Source: Escherichia coli
Lineage (GTDB): Bacteria > Pseudomonadota > Gammaproteobacteria > Enterobacterales > Enterobacteriaceae
Direction: 5' to 3' (one strand)
Length of the DNA stretch: 64,000 bases
Assembly: GCA_902500125.1 (NCBI GenBank)
Contig: GCA_902500125.1_4132.1
In this document: piece by piece, positions 9,156 through 51,838 of the stretch
Layout of the letters: every line of letters starts with the position of its first letter
Numbering within the stretch: the stretch's first letter is position 1
Translations under genes and position numbers: made by a program
The notes under the pieces: model-generated
The model's input: only the letters and a program-made list of their open reading frames with translations
Database searches by the model: none
What the model was told of the DNA's origin: nothing

Positions 9156-9172
9156 ATAATGGGACATCACAT

Positions 9173-9288
<116 letters not shown>

Positions 9289-11184: not shown

Positions 11185-11421
<237 letters not shown>

Positions 11422-11428
11422 CTAAATC

Positions 11429-11733
11429 GGGCCATTAGCTCACGGTGGTTAGAGCAAACGACTCATCGACAATGGTGACTTTCATCAGTAATGGTGATTG
11501 AAAAACTGGATGAATTCAGGGAAATCTTAACACGTAATGGTGATGACAATCCTGAGCCAAGCCCAATAAGCGTATTGGGAAGGTGCAGAGACTAGATGGT
11601 ACAGTACGATCTTACTGTGTAATACATCATTAGCGTCCGGCATCCCTATGGGATGATGATATAGTCCGTACTATAGTGAAAACTATAGATTATACGAATC
11701 GTTAGGTACTGTGTTCGACTCACAGATGGCTCA
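11429..11733 (+). tRNA. tRNA with CAT anticodon (Met or Ile2) interrupted by group I intron
   Basis: 5' half GGGCCAT-TA-GCTC..GAGC-A-AACGA-CTCAT; 3' half AA-TCGTT-AGGTA-CTGTG-TTCGACT-CACAG-ATGGCTC-A; all four stems pair only after removing ~230 nt from the anticodon loop. Confidence 0.7.
11467..11696 (+). ncRNA. group I intron in tRNA anticodon loop (no ORF)
   Basis: follows exon U, ends in G; core-like elements AATTCAGGGAAA (P), AATCCTGAGC (Q), CAGAGACTA (R), GATATAGTCC (S) with complementary P4/P7 strands. Confidence 0.65.
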
Positions 11734-19896: not shown

Positions 19897-21051
19897 TTAT
19901 GCGTTGTAACCAACTATTACGACTGAGCAGTCAAGCGGTTCTACTACTTTAAGAATTACATTATCATCTTCATCCACTTGTATTTCACTATGAACTACAT
20001 GATTGTCTGAAGAATATAATTGAACTTGTGGTAGTGCTTTACCATGTTCAGTTACTGGAACTGAGATAGAGTACATAGAGTCTTCACCGAGAACCCACTC
20101 ACTTAAAGTATATTCTTTATGGAAAGGAGTAGTATGCAGTGTTTTTCCGATTATACTCAAAGAAACAGGTAAATTGTCAGTTTGATACACAGTAATATTA
20201 CCTTCTGCGTCTACAGAAAGATCTACACCAACTTGATATAAGTCACCACTGTATGCTTGAAGTGCTAAGTACTGTCCACGATCATGAACATCAAATGGAA
20301 CAACCGCAGAAAATACACCTTCCGAAACAGGTTCAAATTGGGATAGAAGAACTGATGTAACAAAATCAATATCCTCACCACTTTCAAGAACATCAAATTC
20401 CACCACTTTAGTGTTATAATATGGAGAAGTGAGTGTAGCAGTACCTTTCCCTGATTGTGTGATAACATCAACTGGAATTGTAAATGCATCATTAACAAAT
20501 TGGGTAGTAAAGTATTCTGTCCCGTCTGGTAATACGATTGTTATTACCATACCGTTAGTATCAATTTCTGAACCAGTGTTGAATAATTTACCACTAATTG
20601 AGTCATTACCAACAAATACTGGTGAAATGAGAATATTATCTATATCACGATCTATAATACCACATTCAGGTGTATACATATGATACAAGGTTTGTGAACT
20701 ACCTAAAATTGTTTTATGTAGCATAAATTTATATACAAATCCAGTATCAGTTTCTTGTGGCTCTTCAGAATATCCACGAACAAAGAAACAATTTTTATTA
20801 ATTTCACTTAATAGTTGGTCATTAGTTTTATTGTAATTTAATAGATAACCTTTATTATCTTTAGTTGTTATTTGTACTTTACGATATATTATATTAGTTC
20901 TTGGATCAACTAAATCATATAATCTATGGCTTCTTTGGCGATAGATTCTAATATTTTTTAGTCTAGTTCCATCATTGAGGATTGCACCATCAACAACATA
21001 ACCACATTCACCAAACTTATAGCGTCCAGCCGCAGCAATTGACCTTGACAT
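19897..21051 (-). CDS. hypothetical protein (384 aa), lone minus-strand gene
   Basis: track ORF; RBS GGAGGGATAA on minus strand; upstream TATAAT-like box without clear -35. Confidence 0.65.
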   Translation of the reverse strand: MSRSIAAAGRYKFGECGYVVDGAILNDGTRLKNIRIYRQRSHRLYDLVDPRTNIIYRKVQITTKDNKGYLLNYNKTNDQLLSEINKNCFFVRGYSEEPQETDTGFVYKFMLHKTILGSSQTLYHMYTPECGIIDRDIDNILISPVFVGNDSISGKLFNTGSEIDTNGMVITIVLPDGTEYFTTQFVNDAFTIPVDVITQSGKGTATLTSPYYNTKVVEFDVLESGEDIDFVTSVLLSQFEPVSEGVFSAVVPFDVHDRGQYLALQAYSGDLYQVGVDLSVDAEGNITVYQTDNLPVSLSIIGKTLHTTPFHKEYTLSEWVLGEDSMYSISVPVTEHGKALPQVQLYSSDNHVVHSEIQVDEDDNVILKVVEPLDCSVVIVGYNA

Positions 21052-21167
21052 TTATCCCTCCATTGGTATAATTATTATAACGTATTTATTATGCATATCC
21101 AAAAAATGAGCTTGACTGGTGTATGATTTGGTGTTATCATGTAGTGAATGAATAATGAGGTGTTTTT

Positions 21168-24568: not shown

Positions 24569-24642
24569 AAGTATTTGACATAACAAATAATATGGAGTAC
24601 AATGTGCTCCTAATTTAATTATCAGCTAGAAAGGAAAACATT

Positions 24643-25848: not shown

Positions 25849-26814
25849 GTGAAAAAGCTTGATTTAAATACAATTGCCGAAGAAGTTCTGGATGAATGTT
25901 TTGCTAATGAAGAAGTCAACACACTAGAAGCCTTAGATTTCGTTGAAGATAAAGATGAAAATGAAGGTAAAGTACAAAGCAGTTTCAAATATAATATTAC
26001 ACTTAAGCGACCACCAAATGTTTCCAATGAAGATCTAATTCGTGATATTCAAGCTGGTATCAATGTAAAGAAAAACACTGAACTGTTAGTTCGTTACAAT
26101 TATGGACTTATTATTGATGTAGCAAGTAAATGTACTTGTTATATCCCATTTGAAGATAAGATTTCATATGGTGTTGAGGGGTTCATGAGAGCACTAAAAA
26201 CCTTTGATCTTAATAAGAATGTTAAGTTCATTACCTATGCTTCTTCTAGTATTTACATGACAGTCTATAACGAAAGTTCTGACGCTAACTATATGGTACA
26301 CTTCCCACGTTATATGAGTGTTCATAAGATCAAAGTAAAAAGATTCTGCCAGGAATATATGCGTAAACATGGTGTTCGCCCAACTCCTGAAATAATCTCA
26401 GAGGGTACTGGGATTGAGATTCAGCATGTTAATAACTGTTTGTTATTTCAAAGCGAATACACTTCTCTGGATGCACCATTAGACGGTGTTACCGATGGTA
26501 CACTAGGTGACATTATTCATTCACCTGCTTCTGATTTTAACCTCAATGTTGATAGTATTCGTGCACCTTTACGTTATGCTATCAATGAACTGACTAACGA
26601 ATTGAGTACTAAAGAACGTGAGATTATCCAGCGTGTTCATGGTCTAGGTGAATATGAACCTGAAACGCTTCGTGAGATTGCTGATAATGGTTTTGTTGAT
26701 GATAATGGAAAATATGTTAAATCCCGTTCATCAATACACCGAAAGTACAGTGAAGCTATGCAAAAGCTTAAGAAGCTAGTACTTGCAAAAGGGTACGAAT
26801 ACGAAGATTTCTAA
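25849..26814 (+). CDS. sigma-70 family RNA polymerase sigma factor (phage-encoded)
   Basis: GTG start after AGGAG RBS; region-2-like YGVEGFMRALKTFDLNKNVKFITYASSSIYMTVY and region-4-like EREIIQRVHGLGEYEPETLREIAD. Confidence 0.6.
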   Translation: MKKLDLNTIAEEVLDECFANEEVNTLEALDFVEDKDENEGKVQSSFKYNITLKRPPNVSNEDLIRDIQAGINVKKNTELLVRYNYGLIIDVASKCTCYIPFEDKISYGVEGFMRALKTFDLNKNVKFITYASSSIYMTVYNESSDANYMVHFPRYMSVHKIKVKRFCQEYMRKHGVRPTPEIISEGTGIEIQHVNNCLLFQSEYTSLDAPLDGVTDGTLGDIIHSPASDFNLNVDSIRAPLRYAINELTNELSTKEREIIQRVHGLGEYEPETLREIADNGFVDDNGKYVKSRSSIHRKYSEAMQKLKKLVLAKGYEYEDF

Positions 26815-26819
26815 AGAAA

Positions 26820-26848
26820 AAAGGTTGGCTTATGCCAACCTTTTTTTA
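26820..26848 (+). terminator. rho-independent terminator (GGTTGGCTTATGCCAACC plus T7)
   Basis: perfect stem and T-run directly after sigma factor stop. Confidence 0.7.
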
Positions 26849-26884
26849 TGGGATGAAGTAAAAGTTTGTGATATAATTATCTTG

Positions 26885-27370
26885 TACAATTCTGTTGGCA
26901 TGATATTCATGTACCTGATCCACTCGAAAACGTAGAGGGCAGTTGAGCAGTCCGACAGTGCGAACAGCAAAAGAAACCCGTTAGATGTGGGCATAGTTTG
27001 AACCCCTCACGGCAATGCGGCTGTATAAAGAACCACGTTAGGATAGCTGGTGGTTCCTTGATAGACATATAAGGATAACACCTTACGAATTATCTAAGGG
27101 AGAGTTATCGAATTTTGTACAGGAAAGTTGCGTCCAAAATTTGAGTACTCACATTAAGTATTTGATTGCATAGATACTTAATGAAGATACACTATGTTTA
27201 AAAGTGTAGACCGTCATATGAAACTGAAGTAGAGAGAAACAGGATGACCCGCTTTCGCACTCGTTATGAGTAATCTTCAATGCAATAGCTCTGATACCAT
27301 CAGCGTCAAATTTCCCTCCGTGCGGGGGGGAAGAAAAATCCCTTCCTCAAATCCCGTCAATATTAAAAGT
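26885..27370 (+). ncRNA. candidate large structured ncRNA of unknown class
   Basis: ~500-650 nt with no ORF >=60 aa on either strand; visibly GC-richer; TGTGATATAAT extended -10 promoter at ~26868-26878 like those before tRNAs; GC hairpin near 27310-27330; next promoter at ~27375. Confidence 0.4.
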
Positions 27371-27675: not shown

Positions 27676-27899
27676 GTTATGGTGTTCGTTTTGAGATTCG
27701 TTCTATTGTTATCAATGACGAGAAACAAGCATCGTTGGATGACGATATACGAGAACTATATCTATCATGTATCCGTGCAAAATCTGAAGCAGATGCATTA
27801 TCACAAATGATTGGTTTTAATTTCTTTCATGGATACTATTTGGTACGAGTTATCGAAGTTAAAAAAGTCACTTTTGAGTGTCTTGCTGGAGAAATATAA
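27672..27899 (+). CDS. hypothetical small protein
   Basis: track ORF; ATGA overlap. Confidence 0.45.
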   Translation: MSYGVRFEIRSIVINDEKQASLDDDIRELYLSCIRAKSEADALSQMIGFNFFHGYYLVRVIEVKKVTFECLAGEI

Positions 27900-27900
27900 A

Positions 27901-28695
27901 ATGAGCACTATAGATGAATTGATTCGCCGGAATTCAAAATACTACGAACCATCAGAAATTGTCGGCAACATTACTAAATCTGAGTTCGGACCAAATACTC
28001 GAAAACTCATTCATGTAATGTCACGTGATGGCTTTAAATGTGATTGTTGTGGTGAATCCAATGTGGTATTCACTTTACATAAGCACAGTACTAAAGACCG
28101 TTATAAATTCAGACCTTATGTACTTAAAGGGAAACGCCTTGTACGCATGACGTTAGACCATAATGTACTGGACTGTCTTCAGGGCGGTAATGATAAAGAG
28201 AACATGACTGCATTGTGTGAGGATTGTAACGCATTACGCCAGCATAAGTTTGCTGAGTACAGTGAGTTTAAGCACTGGTATCATAACGAGGATCGTTCTA
28301 TCGAGCCTGACGTTAACTACTGCTTCATTGAGTATATTAAGAATGCTAAAGATACATACATTCTTAAATCAATGTCACCTATTACAGTGTTCCCTGAGAA
28401 TCTATTCAGTACTATGCAGCGTGATTTTAAACGTGGTATCATTAATGCATTCAAACATTTAGACAAAGGTATCAAGCACTTTGAGGTGCAATGCTTAAAT
28501 GAAGGAATGAATCGTTTAGTACAAATTTACATGAAATCATTTATAGGTGTTGACACCGCACGTCTACCAGTATATAATTACTTTATTGAAAGCGAAGAAG
28601 GTGAATCACTTCGTGATTATGGTGAAAGATTTAATAATAAAGTTTCCACTGCAATCGCAAACGAGATTCATTACTATAAACCATATGTAATTTAA
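27901..28695 (+). CDS. HNH endonuclease
   Basis: track ORF 27811..28695 trimmed to ATG (MSTIDEL); CDCCGES Cys cluster and LDHNVLDCLQGGNDKENMTALCEDCNALRQHK HNH motif. Confidence 0.65.
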   Translation: MSTIDELIRRNSKYYEPSEIVGNITKSEFGPNTRKLIHVMSRDGFKCDCCGESNVVFTLHKHSTKDRYKFRPYVLKGKRLVRMTLDHNVLDCLQGGNDKENMTALCEDCNALRQHKFAEYSEFKHWYHNEDRSIEPDVNYCFIEYIKNAKDTYILKSMSPITVFPENLFSTMQRDFKRGIINAFKHLDKGIKHFEVQCLNEGMNRLVQIYMKSFIGVDTARLPVYNYFIESEEGESLRDYGERFNNKVSTAIANEIHYYKPYVI

Positions 28696-38014: not shown

Positions 38015-38129
38015 TTTAACTTTGGGACAACCATTCTTATTATGATATAATGTTTTATGTCATTCGATATAAATGACAACGGAACTATAAATATTATAGT
38101 AAAATTTATCTCTTATAGGAGTTATAAAA

Positions 38130-38513
38130 ATGGTTGGTAAATGGAATAAGAAAGATCCATCACATGATGTTGATATTTCTGGTCTAGACAATGCACATAA
38201 GCACAAGTATCTAGATTCACTAGGTCTTCTAAAACCAGACCAAAGTCTTGCACATGATCGTCCATCCCGTGAAAAAGCATTTAGCCTAGAATCACTAGGC
38301 CATGAGCTTAATCGTGTGTTTGAGGATCACCCAATCTATGTACGTGATATTATCGAGAAACTTAAAGTAACTCCTAAAGAGCACTTTAAAGCAACTGTAC
38401 ACTCTGCATTCCGTGCATTACATGAATCTCTAAAGAAAACTCACAATCTTCGTAAAATTCATGATGAAATCGTGAATGCAATCGAAAGTGAAAAACATAA
38501 GTTCAAGAAGTAA
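38130..38513 (+). CDS. hypothetical protein (paralogous to N-terminal region of 39859..41118)
   Basis: track ORF; shared YLDSLGLL / IIEKLKVTPKE motifs with 39859 ORF. Confidence 0.55.
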   Translation: MVGKWNKKDPSHDVDISGLDNAHKHKYLDSLGLLKPDQSLAHDRPSREKAFSLESLGHELNRVFEDHPIYVRDIIEKLKVTPKEHFKATVHSAFRALHESLKKTHNLRKIHDEIVNAIESEKHKFKK

Positions 38514-47962: not shown

Positions 47963-48276
47963 TGGATATAGTAACATTGATTTACACGTTGTATTCATTC
48001 TATTTCATTATGTGTTGGGTTGGATTTTTATTTGTACTCAAGATGTTTGATTATGTTGAAAAACAGATAAAAGAATTTTGTATTCCTTTTATCGGTTCAA
48101 CCATTATTAGTGTTTCTTGTGTGTATTTTTTGGTTTTTGATCCACCAGATAACACTGCAATGATTGACTTGATGTTACTACCAACAACTGTTACTTTTTT
48201 ATGTAGTCTGATGCCGCCGATTAGCCGTGGACTAACAGAATTTAGACGCAATCAAAAGCGTAAACGAGGGATGTAA
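47962..48276 (+). CDS. 3-TM small membrane protein, paralog family B
   Basis: track ORF; C-terminal ..RRNQKRKRGM. Confidence 0.55.
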   Translation: MDIVTLIYTLYSFYFIMCWVGFLFVLKMFDYVEKQIKEFCIPFIGSTIISVSCVYFLVFDPPDNTAMIDLMLLPTTVTFLCSLMPPISRGLTEFRRNQKRKRGM

Positions 48277-48644
48277 TGGAAATTGCTCTTATTATCTTAA
48301 CTGCTATGCTGTTTATTAGTACTGTGGTTATAATTGGTAAATTCTTTTGTGTATCATTTTTAGAAACGGTATACGATGAAATTGCTGATGATTATGAATT
48401 ACAAGCCGGATTTTTCATTACGTATTGGCTTAGTTTATTTTGTCTAGTCATTGCTTGGATTTTACATATCTTTAAATGGGGTATGGTAGACGGTGATCCT
48501 ATTATGGCAATTATTGTTCTAGTGTTTGGTATCCTTGGTGGTGCAGTGCATAATCTAATGGTTATCTGGCAAACTGTTCAATATGTTTTGGTTCCCTATT
48601 TCGAAAAGATGCACAGTACAATTAAAAAACGTAAACGAGGTTAG
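48276..48644 (+). CDS. 3-TM small membrane protein, paralog family B
   Basis: track ORF; C-terminal ..IKKRKRG. Confidence 0.55.
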   Translation: MEIALIILTAMLFISTVVIIGKFFCVSFLETVYDEIADDYELQAGFFITYWLSLFCLVIAWILHIFKWGMVDGDPIMAIIVLVFGILGGAVHNLMVIWQTVQYVLVPYFEKMHSTIKKRKRG

Positions 48645-48645
48645 T

Positions 48646-49008
48646 ATGAACGGGATAGAATTATCTTTCGTTGGTCAATTACTAGTAATGGCGTATACAT
48701 TTATCTTCTCACTGAATGCATTCGTGTGCATTGGGAAGTACTTCCATAAGCGACCATTATCAAATATATATGATGTAATCCAAAAGAGATATAGTCCAGC
48801 ATATACTGTGTTGGGTACAGTATTCAATTTTGGTTTTATTGTATTAATAATTGGACTGTTCACATCCTCTTTGAATACAATAACCTTCGGTCTTATGATA
48901 TGTTCATTGGTATTAGCCGTAATTATATGTTGTTTAGTACTGCACCTTGTGGTACTATTGTATATAAAGATCTCTGAAATCCACCAACGTTTGGGTATGA
49001 GGAAATAA
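48646..49008 (+). CDS. 3-TM small membrane protein, paralog family B
   Basis: track ORF 48583..49008 trimmed to ATG (MNGIELSF). Confidence 0.5.
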   Translation: MNGIELSFVGQLLVMAYTFIFSLNAFVCIGKYFHKRPLSNIYDVIQKRYSPAYTVLGTVFNFGFIVLIIGLFTSSLNTITFGLMICSLVLAVIICCLVLHLVVLLYIKISEIHQRLGMRK

Positions 49009-49423: not shown

Positions 49424-50086
49424 ATGATGAAATCAAAATTAGGTTTGTTTTATAAAAACTATTTTGTTAAACAACGTAAATTTATAAAAAAATATTTCTC
49501 TGGCGAGAAGTCTAGTCCTATAATCTTTAAAAGACCAAGTTATAATACTTACTTAGCTGGTGCTAAACAGTCTAAGAAATTTATTACTCTTTTACATAAA
49601 AACAAAATTAAAGCTTCTTATGTTGAAACGAGAAGAAACTCATCAATAACTCCTGGTGATTTTATTGAGTACGGATGTTTCAATATTAAGTACAATGATA
49701 ATACATACTTTATGGATATTGATTGTAATACATCCAATCTTTTTAACATTGTAGTAAATCCATTAAAACAATATAATGTTTATGGTGATTCTATTATCAA
49801 ATTAATCAAAAACAAAGATAGCTTTGATTTTGAAATAAATGTTTTAGATGATAATTTTGACGAAGTACCAGTAAACCCTGAAATCTGTGATATTTTAAAC
49901 AGTTTAAAAGGTAGTACCTACACTATATCATCTGATTTAATGTTTCAGTACTCATTAATCCATAAAGATATTGAAAAGTATATTGAATGCTCCAAAATTT
50001 TGAATTATCTTTACGATGAATTTAAAAAGAGTTCTAAAATAACCGCATACACTTTGTACAATATTCCTAAAATGGTGAATCTTTGA
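49424..50086 (+). CDS. hypothetical protein, EExFQxSTV-motif family (divergent)
   Basis: track ORF; SSDLMFQYSLIHKD motif. Confidence 0.55.
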   Translation: MMKSKLGLFYKNYFVKQRKFIKKYFSGEKSSPIIFKRPSYNTYLAGAKQSKKFITLLHKNKIKASYVETRRNSSITPGDFIEYGCFNIKYNDNTYFMDIDCNTSNLFNIVVNPLKQYNVYGDSIIKLIKNKDSFDFEINVLDDNFDEVPVNPEICDILNSLKGSTYTISSDLMFQYSLIHKDIEKYIECSKILNYLYDEFKKSSKITAYTLYNIPKMVNL

Positions 50087-50490
50087 CAAATACAGTACTG
50101 GCAACTCCACCGTCTGTAACATATTGTCCAGTACTGTAAATTTGTATACCATCGGTTAAGTAAGTTCTGTATAAAGTTGCTGTAACATATACGTTATTCA
50201 TATTCATCTCTATTGGTAGTACACATTTGGTATAGGCTGAGACATCTGTTTGTGTACCTATACCTAATTGACCTGCGTTATCGCCTGTGTTATAACCAGT
50301 TGCGTAAACACCTAATGAAGTTATAATATGATTAGAAAAATATGAATAACCCAAACTCTTGAGATTCTCTACTGTACAACGTACCATCTGACATAAGGGC
50401 AAAAACTGTTGTATCAGATGAAGCTATTTTTGTTACAGAAGGTTGTATGTTCTGTTTTGATGATGTGATAATTCTTCGAAAGGGTAGCAT
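50067..50490 (-). pseudogene. degenerate remnant of MLPF/RCC1-like paralog
   Basis: ATG at ~50490 encodes MLPFRRI..FALMSDGTLY then stop after ~52 codons; C-terminal ORF 50067..50402 (other frame, TTG start) matches C-terminus of 58650..59816; own cassette upstream. Confidence 0.5.
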
Positions 50491-50561
50491 TGTATCCTCC
50501 AAATGTAAATCGTTATTATATTTAGGACAAAAAAATGCCAGTACAAAATACTGGCTTTATT
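50491..50561 (-). promoter_or_regulatory. terminator/-10-only promoter/RBS cassette (variant)
   Basis: hairpin GCCAGTATTTTGTACTGGC, T-run, TAAATATAAT box and GGAGG before ATG. Confidence 0.45.
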
Positions 50562-51767
50562 TTATATACCACGACTGGGTATTTTATATAATTGAAATTT
50601 AGTGTAATAATCAGAAACTGTTGTACCTGTCGCTTGTGGGATATAGCCACTCAAATACACATCCCCTTGATTATCCATATACACATTTGTACATTCACTT
50701 GGACAGAATAACTCGATGCTGCCAACTTTAGGTGCATCAACTGGAACTACAAATGTAGTACTTGATGTTGTATTACCGCGACCGAGCCTACCATATGTGT
50801 TTATACCACACATATAAAGTGAATTGTTAGTTTTAACCGTAAGACCACCATATGTTAATGAATTTGATTTCATTATCATATCATCTGATATTGGTAGAGT
50901 GGAGATTGTAGATAATACTGTCCCTGATGAAGCGGCTGAACCATTACCCAAGTTACCTTCCGATTGAATCCCACTTGCACGAACTGTATATGTATTATTC
51001 GTGTTGTGTTTAGATACAACCCATGATGCACTCCCACCAAGTTCATAATGTATAACAGTATTGTTGGCTAATGCACCCATTTGTGTCCATACTCTAATGT
51101 TAGTTTCACCATTACTTATACCAAGTGAACCCCATGTGTTTTGACCAGTTACCCAAAGTGTTTTATCAATTTTCTGCACAATCACTGCACTTGAACCTGT
51201 TTTTACACTATCCACATTCGTATTAATTGAAGTAAATGTTGATAATCTTGTGGTTGTGTTATTACCAAAATATCCCTGTGTATTTGCCCCCATTCCATAT
51301 AGCGTACCATTTTGAAGTAAAACAAAAATACCCTCCCCTACAATTTGAATGTCCTTAATTTGCGACAATTGTGTTGCATTGAATACTGATGTAAAATATG
51401 AAGTACAATCAGTATAAGTACTGACAGTACTTAATCCTGCACCAATAGCTCTACCTACGCCACTGTAATAAAATTTATTATCTTCGGTTTGGATTAAATT
51501 AAAAGAACCTTGGGCTGTTCTAAAACGTTTTACATTTTGGTATATTAAAGTCCACTCTTTTACTTTCGCATTAGGTACACCATTTCCGAATCCATAGTTT
51601 TGTGAACTAGTTCCACCTATACCCATTAAGTCTCCATTTTTATATAATAGTAAGAGTGCTGTTGCTGGAATAACTGACGCACTATAACCATTGTAAATAA
51701 AGATTTCTTTCACTTCAGGAACTTTCATTTTATTTGCGTATTTTATCATCCTTGGAAAAGGTAACAT
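50562..51767 (-). CDS. RCC1-like beta-propeller repeat protein with MLPF N-terminal peptide
   Basis: track ORF; N-terminus MLPFPRMIKYANK; recurring G.N..G.LG blade-like motifs every ~50 aa (motif recall). Confidence 0.7.
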   Translation of the reverse strand: MLPFPRMIKYANKMKVPEVKEIFIYNGYSASVIPATALLLLYKNGDLMGIGGTSSQNYGFGNGVPNAKVKEWTLIYQNVKRFRTAQGSFNLIQTEDNKFYYSGVGRAIGAGLSTVSTYTDCTSYFTSVFNATQLSQIKDIQIVGEGIFVLLQNGTLYGMGANTQGYFGNNTTTRLSTFTSINTNVDSVKTGSSAVIVQKIDKTLWVTGQNTWGSLGISNGETNIRVWTQMGALANNTVIHYELGGSASWVVSKHNTNNTYTVRASGIQSEGNLGNGSAASSGTVLSTISTLPISDDMIMKSNSLTYGGLTVKTNNSLYMCGINTYGRLGRGNTTSSTTFVVPVDAPKVGSIELFCPSECTNVYMDNQGDVYLSGYIPQATGTTVSDYYTKFQLYKIPSRGI

Positions 51768-51838
51768 AAAATCCTCCTTTATTCATTATACTATATTTAA
51801 TCAAAAAGAAAAGCCAGTGTTAAGTACTGGCATAAAAT
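51768..51838 (-). promoter_or_regulatory. terminator/-10-only promoter/RBS cassette
   Basis: minus strand reads GCCAGTAC..ACTGGC hairpin, T-run, GATTAAATATAGTATAATGAATAAAGGAGG, ATG. Confidence 0.55.

Follow-up and report, generated by a model that had tools for sequence, protein, structure and literature searches.

The 64,000-nucleotide stretch analysed here (the window; Escherichia coli assembly GCA_902500125.1, contig GCA_902500125.1_4132.1) is Asteriusvirus DNA, about 95% identical to the jumbo coliphages 121Q and PBECO4, and its open reading frame (ORF) at 25849-26814 encodes an RpoD-like sigma factor. The initial annotation had paired this factor with TATAAT boxes lacking a -35 element, which precede a minus-strand gene array and the gene 19897-21051, and had proposed that it drives a middle or late transcription class from them. 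We find that these boxes share an invariant TAAATA core and that, judged by sequence, the array and 19897-21051 have the late promoters that are usual in this phage group. They are likely to be late promoters of the type read by T4 gp55, and not targets of the product of ORF 25849-26814. The promoters whose -35 boxes vary together with the recognition helix of the RpoD-like sigma form another class, which precedes replication genes, tRNA genes and the gene for a gp55-like protein.

Megablast with the 24-29 kb part of the window retrieved 41 phage records, the best being SHEFM2K, PBECO4 and 121Q at about 95% identity over the full query, and the window is collinear with 63.4-127.4 kb of 121Q. 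For what lies beyond the window in this phage, the annotated 121Q genome (348,532 bp) stood in. Expected promoter counts came from first-order Markov simulation, and those for the array motif TAAATANNNTATAAT from dinucleotide shuffles (n = 100). Relatives of the sigma factor at 35-46% identity were missed by a word-indexed protein search and were recovered by tblastn and locus scans.

The gene in question is the following:
25849..26814, plus strand: RpoD-like phage sigma factor, homologue of 121Q gp167; 321 amino acids (aa), GTG start, AGGAG Shine-Dalgarno sequence.

The ORF encodes a genuine protein of the sigma-70 family with regions 2, 3 and 4. Motifs resembling regions 2 and 4 had been recognised in the initial annotation, and they were borne out by Pfam, PHROG, phmmer and Foldseek searches. 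Among the Pfam models, Sigma70_r3 matched above its cut-off (2e-9, 37.8 bits; cut-off 25.3), and Sigma70_r2 (7e-5, 23.0 bits; cut-off 24) and Sigma70_r4 (3e-5, 23.8 bits; cut-off 24.1) fell just under theirs; the match to PHROG 351, 'RNA polymerase sigma factor', was strong (2.6e-60). A phmmer search of PDB aligned residues 31-283, from region 2.1 through region 4, with RpoD, SigA, SigB and RpoS at up to 5e-17. The AlphaFold2 (AF2) model had a mean confidence (pLDDT) of 72, with residues 50-200 and 240-315 confident, and the top 50 Foldseek matches to it were all sigma chains or sigma-containing models (E about 1e-10). The equivalents of F419, F427 and Y430 of sigma-70 region 2 are kept. No Pfam match to Sigma70_r1 was found in the ORF, the hallmarks of group 1 factors in regions 1.1/1.2 and the non-conserved region are missing, and the N-terminal 49 residues are acidic and predicted by AF2 to be disordered. 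Since it lacks region 1 and has a disordered N-terminus, the protein is RpoD-like in regions 2-4 only and is not a primary sigma. It showed no significant similarity to T4 gp55 (BLASTP E = 0.12).

This identification is correct and already annotated: the protein shares 99% of its residues with 121Q gp167 and with the 'RNA polymerase sigma factor' of PBECO4. The sigma of this phage group has been mentioned for CBB (PMC5259590), and it also figures in papers on fEgEco12 and phAPEC6 and in a survey comparing jumbo phages. We found it in all 33 Escherichia-phage records that have a gp55-like gene. A recent paper stated that the fEgEco12 sigma factor is 'completely absent' in Ecwhy_1 (PMC13070987, 2026); this was rejected, as tblastn located the ORF at MH791411.1 1665-2630 with 99.1% identity to the window sigma, a value that the fEgEco12 gene shares, and the reported absence is an artefact of annotation or comparison.

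The sequence of this sigma has diverged widely. Identity is 31-46% across the clades of 121Q, RaK2, GAP32, CBB, BF and fHe-Yen9-04, and region 2.4 is strongly different between clades (SSSIYMTVYNES versus TTAIRQHMYRNG). The gene is also a divergence hot spot at closer range: the sigmas of 121Q and vB_Ec-M-J are about 60% identical, and their gp55-like proteins 95%. In the AF2 model, the region 4.2 helices span residues 274-280 and 293-313 and are separated by a beta-hairpin insertion. This insertion (residues 282-291, DDNGKY) contains a D-x-x-G-K motif that is kept in all clades of the phage sigma family and is absent from cellular sigmas.

The sigma gene lies in a block of small plus-strand genes that is rich in host-type promoters. 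Sites with at least 11 of 12 matches to TTGACA-N16-18-TATAAT (class I) number 28 on the plus strand of the window and 0 on the minus strand, with 3.2 and 2.9 expected; this agrees with the host-type promoters that the initial annotation had seen before plus-strand genes. Five perfect 12/12 sites fall within 16-32 kb of the window. The corresponding counts in 121Q are 107 and 14, with about 19 and 16 expected. The nearest site upstream of the sigma gene and the terminator that follows the gene are:
24575..24603, plus strand: class I promoter TTGACA-N17-TACAAT found by sequence scan, separated from the sigma gene by three small ORFs.
26820..26848, plus strand: intrinsic terminator, a hairpin and T-tract read from the sequence AAAAAGGTTGGCTTATGCCAACCTTTTTTT, right after the sigma stop codon.
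The gene begins 1.27 kb downstream of the 24575-24603 promoter, which may transcribe it as part of an operon. As it sits in a block of consensus host promoters, the sigma is probably made early.

A second promoter class (class II) has the consensus TG[GA]GACA-N16-TGnTATAAT. The pattern G[GA]GACA-N16-17-TA[TC]AAT, usually with TGn before the -10 element, was found 20 times on the plus strand of 121Q and 0 times on the minus strand, with 0.4 expected. In this genome it precedes the genes for ssb, primase, exonuclease, topoisomerase II, the ClpP-like and ClpA-like proteases and a nudix hydrolase, the gene before DNA polymerase, tRNA genes and the gene for the clamp-like gp613; the gp55-like gene, too, has such a site 58 nt ahead of it. 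The window has two canonical copies and one variant:
9161..9188, plus strand: GGGACA-N16-(TGA)TATAAT, 10 nt upstream of a tRNA gene.
38024..38051, plus strand: GGGACA-N16-(TGA)TATAAT, upstream of ORF 38130-38513 (homologue of 121Q gp199).
26850..26877, plus strand: class II-like GGGATG-N16-TGA-TATAAT, directly after the sigma terminator.
The box reported for CBB, TGAAACG, was also tried with a -10 element in 121Q and rejected, as it formed no promoter-like cluster; the class exists there with another box.

The class II -35 box varies among phage clades together with the recognition helix of the sigma. Orthologues of the promoter that precedes the gp55-like gene occur in 19 IMG/VR contigs and in several GenBank phages; their -10 element is constant and their -35 box is clade-specific. 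In an unbiased scan, only TGnTA[TC]AAT was searched for in syntenic 50-kb stretches of five genomes, and the 9-mer lying 16 nt upstream was read. Nearly all hits on the gene strand carried the clade-specific box; none of the opposite-strand hits did. The sigma recognition helix was aligned to residues 583-591 of sigma-70, in which 584, 585, 586, 588 and 589 are the groove-facing positions that determine -35 specificity (PMC2613000; PMC12262734). The boxes and the residues equivalent to 584/585/586/588/589 are, by phage:
121Q and the window: box TG[GA]GACA; residues R S S H R.
Turkey3: box GGGACA (one site); residues R S S H R.
fENko-Kae01: box TGGGAC[AG]; residues R T S H R.
Hallingskeid: box TG[GA]GAT[AG]; residues H S T H R.
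BF, Kaldavass and CBB type: box TG[GA]AAC[GA]; residues K A T S R.
RaK2: box TGAAC[AG]; residues R G T H Y.

Sigmas with the same groove-facing residues have the same box even when only 35-60% identical overall, and wherever the box differs between clades, so does the helix. The fENko-Kae01 sigma is 46% identical to those of BF and Hallingskeid and 37% to that of the window, yet its helix and box are as in the window. The residue equivalent to 584 tracks positions -31/-30 (R or K with C, H with T), and those equivalent to 585 and 588 track -33 (S or T plus H with G, A or G with A). These helix changes are at the sites that sigma-70 genetics would predict.

Region 4.2 of Enterobacterales sigma-70 is essentially invariant, and the hosts of the compared phages are all Enterobacterales. 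A clade-specific box beside an invariant host region 4.2 argues for a phage-encoded reader, and among the phage proteins a sigma region 4 was found in the product of ORF 25849-26814 alone. The covariation is thus our basis for assigning class II to this sigma, as a circumstantial hypothesis. Relative to the literature that we found, both the covariation and the assignment appear to be new. We consider the evidence evenly poised on the joint proposal that it is the dedicated middle-gene sigma of Rak2-like phages, which would have kept TGnTATAAT, co-evolved its helix in each clade with that clade's -35 box (GGGACA, GGGATA, GGAACG or TGAACA), and switched on the gp55-like gene.

The promoters that had been paired with the sigma belong to a third class (class III). 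They lie on the minus strand, before an array of RCC1-like genes and before a virion gene:
50562..59816, minus strand: array of eight RCC1-like paralogues, 121Q gp234-248.
19897..21051, minus strand: homologue of 121Q gp155, annotated in 121Q as 'virion structural protein, Ig-domain'.
21074..21088, minus strand: late promoter TAAATAcgtTATAAT upstream of 19897-21051.
51785..51799, minus strand: late promoter TAAATAtagTATAAT of cassette 50562-51767.
53025..53039, minus strand: late promoter TAAATAtagTATAAT of cassette 51839-~53008.
56587..56601, minus strand: late promoter TAAATAtagTATAAT of cassette 55395-~56570, probably serving 54577-55386 too.
57397..57411, minus strand: late promoter TAAATAtatTATAAT of cassette 56642-57379.
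58598..58612, minus strand: late promoter TAAATAtagTATATT of cassette 57453-58580.
59834..59848, minus strand: late promoter TAAATAtgaTATAAT of cassette 58650-59816.
50537-50555, 51813-51831, 53054-53072, 56614-56636, 57427-57445 and 58623-58642, minus strand: cassette terminators, GCCAGTAC-loop-GTACTGGC with a T-tract.

Six of the eight array ORFs are cassettes composed of a late promoter, a Shine-Dalgarno sequence, an ORF starting MLPF and a terminator. In order, each has the GCCAGTAC..GTACTGGC hairpin and T-tract of the preceding unit, then TAAATAtagTATAATGAATAAAGGAGG, then the ATG of MLPF. A separate promoter is lacking at ORFs 53087-54196 and 54577-55386. The listed first ATGs of the ORFs ending at 53074 and 56588 fall inside the upstream terminator/promoter region; the actual start codons follow the TAAATA box by about 25 nt. 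Terminator-like sites number 14 in the 48-64 kb part of the window (6.7 expected). The product of 19897-21051 had no match in Pfam.

The TATAAT boxes seen in the initial annotation are indeed present at these genes and enriched: TAAATANNNTATAAT with at most one mismatch gave 11 hits against 4.0 expected, a number reached in 0 of 100 shuffles, and 7 of the 11 lie directly upstream of array ORFs or 19897-21051. What had been missed is that the invariant core is TAAATA, 3 nt upstream of TATAAT. All promoter-bearing cassettes and the gp155 gene carry TAAATA, and one cassette has TATATT in place of TATAAT. No convincing -35 element was found at these boxes, the best sigma-70 score there being 9-10/12. 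Since the cassettes are recent duplicates, the similarity of their boxes to one another says little alone.

Genome-wide, the same TAAATA core marks late genes. Ribosome-binding sites aside, the 8-mers most enriched upstream of 121Q genes are ATAAATA variants and sigma-70 hexamers. TAAATA lies 25-50 nt before the ATG of genes for the major capsid, scaffold, sheath, tube, baseplate, fibre, spanin and endonuclease VII proteins, and about 33 of the 48 sites outside the array precede structural or late genes according to the annotation tables. One such site is in the window:
38088..38093, plus strand: class III TAAATA box, 36 nt upstream of ORF 38130-38513 (121Q virion structural protein).
A position matrix of the 48 sites has no information upstream of the box and no conserved -35 element; A precedes the box in 56% and is again over-represented 6 and 8 nt beyond it, a pattern that a start site would give. 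TATAAT at +3 was considered as a general late feature and rejected, since it is not general among the 48 sites; in exact form and at a constant 3 nt from TAAATA, the hexamer was seen in the array, before gp155 and before a single 121Q tail-tube gene, and most late promoters lack it. TAAATA is about 3-fold depleted overall (231 observed and about 707 simulated in 121Q, 46 and about 135 in the window), as would be expected if stray late-promoter boxes were selected against. The box is kept before the orthologues of structural genes in BF, a Serratia phage, and Hallingskeid, an Erwinia phage, and ATAAATA, 'resembling the T4 late promoter', was predicted earlier for CBB and GAP32 (PMC5259590).

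A candidate reader of these promoters is encoded outside the window. 121Q gp591 is annotated as 'sigma factor for late transcription', and the neighbours of its gene are gp47/46-like nuclease genes, an arrangement also seen for gene 55 of T4. Matches were obtained to PHROG 234, 'late sigma transcription factor' (8.4e-18), and to residues 7-134 of T4 gp55 (BLASTP 2e-4), and tblastn with the protein recovers hundreds of cyanophage late-transcription sigma genes, one of which is called gp55 in the S-SSM7 record. The protein has 279 aa with an N-terminal extension of about 120 aa. This extension was considered as a fused gp33, which was rejected because the two gave no alignment. A gp55-family sigma co-occurs in every relative examined, and the gp55-like proteins of 121Q, RaK2, GAP32, CBB, BF and fHe-Yen9-04 are 73-78% identical. 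The conservation of the gp55-like protein matches the constancy of TAAATA, and the window sigma diverges; this contrast, together with the homology to gp55, points to the gp55-like protein as the array reader.

From the two sigma homologies, the promoter motifs and the covariation we infer the timing, the factor assigned to each class and the start sites of a cascade in which the phage relies on host RNA polymerase and three promoter classes. Host sigma-70 would read class I (TTGACA-N17-TATAAT) at small early plus-strand genes, including ORF 25849-26814. The window sigma would then replace sigma-70 on the host core and read class II through its diverged region 4.2 helix, thereby switching on replication genes, tRNAs and the gene for gp55-like gp591. 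This protein would in turn read the -35-less TAAATA of class III, with transcripts probably starting 6-8 nt downstream, and drive the structural and lysis genes, the RCC1 cassettes and the virion gene 19897-21051. The TATAAT noted earlier would be the start-site region of a subset of late promoters: in the array, a start 6-8 nt after TAAATA would lie inside TATAAT and leave a leader of about 20 nt. We regard the whole three-tier model as somewhat better supported than not. Under it the suggestion that the sigma drives a post-early class would probably stand, from class II, and the promoters named for it would not.

Several points weigh against the model. Its class II step has a competitor that we consider unlikely although it is the strongest of those weighed: host sigma-70 itself may read class II through the extended -10, perhaps with some phage activator bound at TGRGACA, and the phage sigma would then compete for the core in host shut-off or serve a few genes only. 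The class II -10 is a canonical extended element that host sigma-70 can use without a -35, TGnTATAAT being a sufficient sigma-70 promoter in E. coli (PMC2613000). The 121Q box keeps the GACA of TTGACA, and the box could be bound by a phage activator instead of a sigma, a scheme used at T4 middle genes. The window sigma has S/S for W433/W434, M for Q437 and Y for T440 in the phmmer alignment (its relatives have T/A or V/S at the W433/W434 positions); without these canonical melting and -12 residues, it is an unexpected reader of a canonical TATAAT. The covariation comes from five related, non-independent clades in which many other residues differ too. The gene coordinates in the genome-wide 121Q statistics came from a simple ORF caller of our own. 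A literature search found no transcript, start-site or timing data for Asteriusvirus, nor time-resolved transcriptomes or start maps of Rak2-like coliphages; PA5oct, a distant relative, has RNA sequencing, in which promoters were assigned to no sigma. On the late side, phmmer searches of 121Q with T4 gp33, DsbA, gp45 and gp62 gave no match at single-sequence sensitivity, and gp44 was found and gp32 weakly. Late activation in the T4 manner, through gp33 and the clamp, is thus hypothetical for these phages. The sole basis for a putative clamp is the HHpred note of the depositors of fENko-Kae01, which likens ENKO_295 to the RB69 gp45 sliding clamp; its 121Q orthologue gp613 (344995-345726, 78% identical) is annotated as hypothetical and lies behind a class II promoter.

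What tells for the phage sigma over the host factor at class II is that the box varies, in step with the sigma helix, among clades that share the same host sigma-70. The sigma gene is moreover present in all 33 of the Escherichia-phage records with a gp55-like gene, and a phmmer search of the six-frame 121Q ORFs for T4 AsiA and MotA gave no hit at single-sequence sensitivity.

The pairing made in the initial annotation, in which the RpoD-like sigma itself reads the TATAAT boxes of the array and 19897-21051 as a middle or late class, we consider very doubtful. The boxes are real and enriched, the sigma is probably early, its atypical -10 residues (S,S; Q437 and T440 changed) leave room for a non-standard -10 specificity, and phmmer found no gp33 homologue in 121Q for a T4-style late system. 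Yet the conserved element is TAAATA, not TATAAT, and it is constant where region 2.4 of the sigma, at 31-46% overall identity, differs strongly. The helix-turn-helix residues of region 4 covary with the -35 box of another class, and a conserved gp55-family sigma is at hand in every relative examined. With TATAAT as the -10 element, moreover, the array start about 7 nt after it would lie within the Shine-Dalgarno sequence or 1-2 nt before it. A dual arrangement, in which TAAATA is used late by the gp55-like protein and TATAAT as a weak, earlier -10-only start by sigma-70 or the RpoD-like sigma, so that RCC1-like proteins are made over a longer period than ordinary late proteins, is equally improbable: the exact TATAAT at 3 nt is confined to the array, gp155 and one tail-tube gene, which would suit it, but the paralogues are recent and may have inherited TATAAT in a single event, it has neither TGn nor a -35 box, and the leader would be very short.

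Other features of the window were noted. Around the sigma gene, an ORF-free stretch of about 490 nt (26878-27370) faces the 26850-26877 promoter, and no ORF is annotated there in 121Q either. In this locus (26850-27370) the stretch has a higher GC content than the flanking DNA, a G/C hairpin (27315-27335) marks its end, and it may be a non-coding RNA, with no Rfam family and a folding z-score of -1.8. An HNH endonuclease gene (27811-28695) lies downstream of the sigma gene. A class II promoter is also kept in three clades in a gap beside the endonuclease VII gene, where no ORF is annotated in 121Q or BF (121Q 326509-327344, our locus L006 at about 48010-48845; BF, L052 at about 4868; Hallingskeid, L051, reverse complement, at about 4864); it is a possible sign of a non-coding transcript or of a primer used in replication. 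The tRNA cluster of the window has tRNAs at 9199, 9293, 11185, 12466 and 14046 and, on the plus strand at 11374-11688, a group I intron that matches the full-length Rfam model RF00028 at 99 bits.

On the minus strand, a 380-nt ORF-free gap within the array (54197-54576) and, at the array's end, a short fragment with its own TAAATA box and MLPF start (50067-50524) resemble decayed RCC1 cassettes. Cassette numbers and boundaries differ between the window and 121Q. The palindrome (C)AGTACT(G) stands immediately before TATAAT in the spacers of many class I promoters (e.g. 9899, 29200, 33509 and 43857) and recurs in the minus-strand terminator stems of the RCC1 cassettes (50537-58642); it may be a shared binding site or reflect a bias related to restriction or modification.

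A close precedent is the analysis of CBB and GAP32, in which MEME predicted three classes (Buttimer et al. 2017, PMC5259590): RpoD-like promoters in a small-gene block containing the gene for the RpoD-like sigma, a 'divergent' class with TGAAACG at -35 upstream of genes for DNA synthesis and of the gp55-like gene, and ATAAATA upstream of structural genes. The window agrees with that scheme, with the difference that the 121Q-type box is TG[GA]GACA and that TGAAACG is absent from 121Q as a promoter class. That paper assigns no reader to class II and does not mention helix covariation (PMC5259590), and neither the assignment of the class II box to this sigma nor the covariation was found elsewhere in our literature search. 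Earlier work on this phage group had thus already described the late motif and the genes for both sigmas, and the finding from which this analysis set out adds little to them.

The cascade of Bacillus phage SPO1 runs from host sigma-A to gp28 and then to gp33/34 (PMC13401047). The proposed scheme is alike in that the host sigma acts early, an early-encoded phage sigma would act on middle genes and a middle-encoded sigma on late ones. It would be unlike SPO1 in that the 121Q-type middle sigma keeps a TATAAT-type -10 with TGn and changes only the -35, and in that the late sigma is of gp55 type. We draw this likeness at the level of function only and claim no relationship in sequence.

T4 late transcription uses the gp55 sigma, the gp33 co-activator and the gp45 clamp at a promoter, TATAAATA, that has no -35 element. 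The phage studied here is similar in its -35-less (A)TAAATA at the right distance, in a gp55-family gene beside gp46/47-like genes, and in having, in 121Q, a clamp-loader homologue and a putative clamp. It differs in the 279-aa size of its gp55-like protein with the extension of about 120 aa, in giving no phmmer match to gp33 or DsbA, and in that 6 of the 8 positions of the T4 box (TATAAATA) are fixed; the factor is encoded outside the window and is not ORF 25849-26814.

At T4 middle genes, sigma-70 is appropriated by AsiA and MotA, with a MotA box at -30. Class II shares with these promoters a sigma-70-like, often extended -10, a phage-specific box in place of the -35 and a position before replication genes. 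TGRGACA is unlike the MotA box, AsiA and MotA were not found by phmmer, and a complete sigma with a covarying helix-turn-helix is present instead. If the model is right, a three-tier cascade replaces the AsiA/MotA appropriation of T4 and would explain timed expression in 350-kb phages that have no polymerase of their own. Its middle factor would be a fast-evolving full-length sigma whose -35 specificity drifts together with its promoters, and the clades would offer natural orthogonal pairs of sigma and -35 box for E. coli core polymerase.

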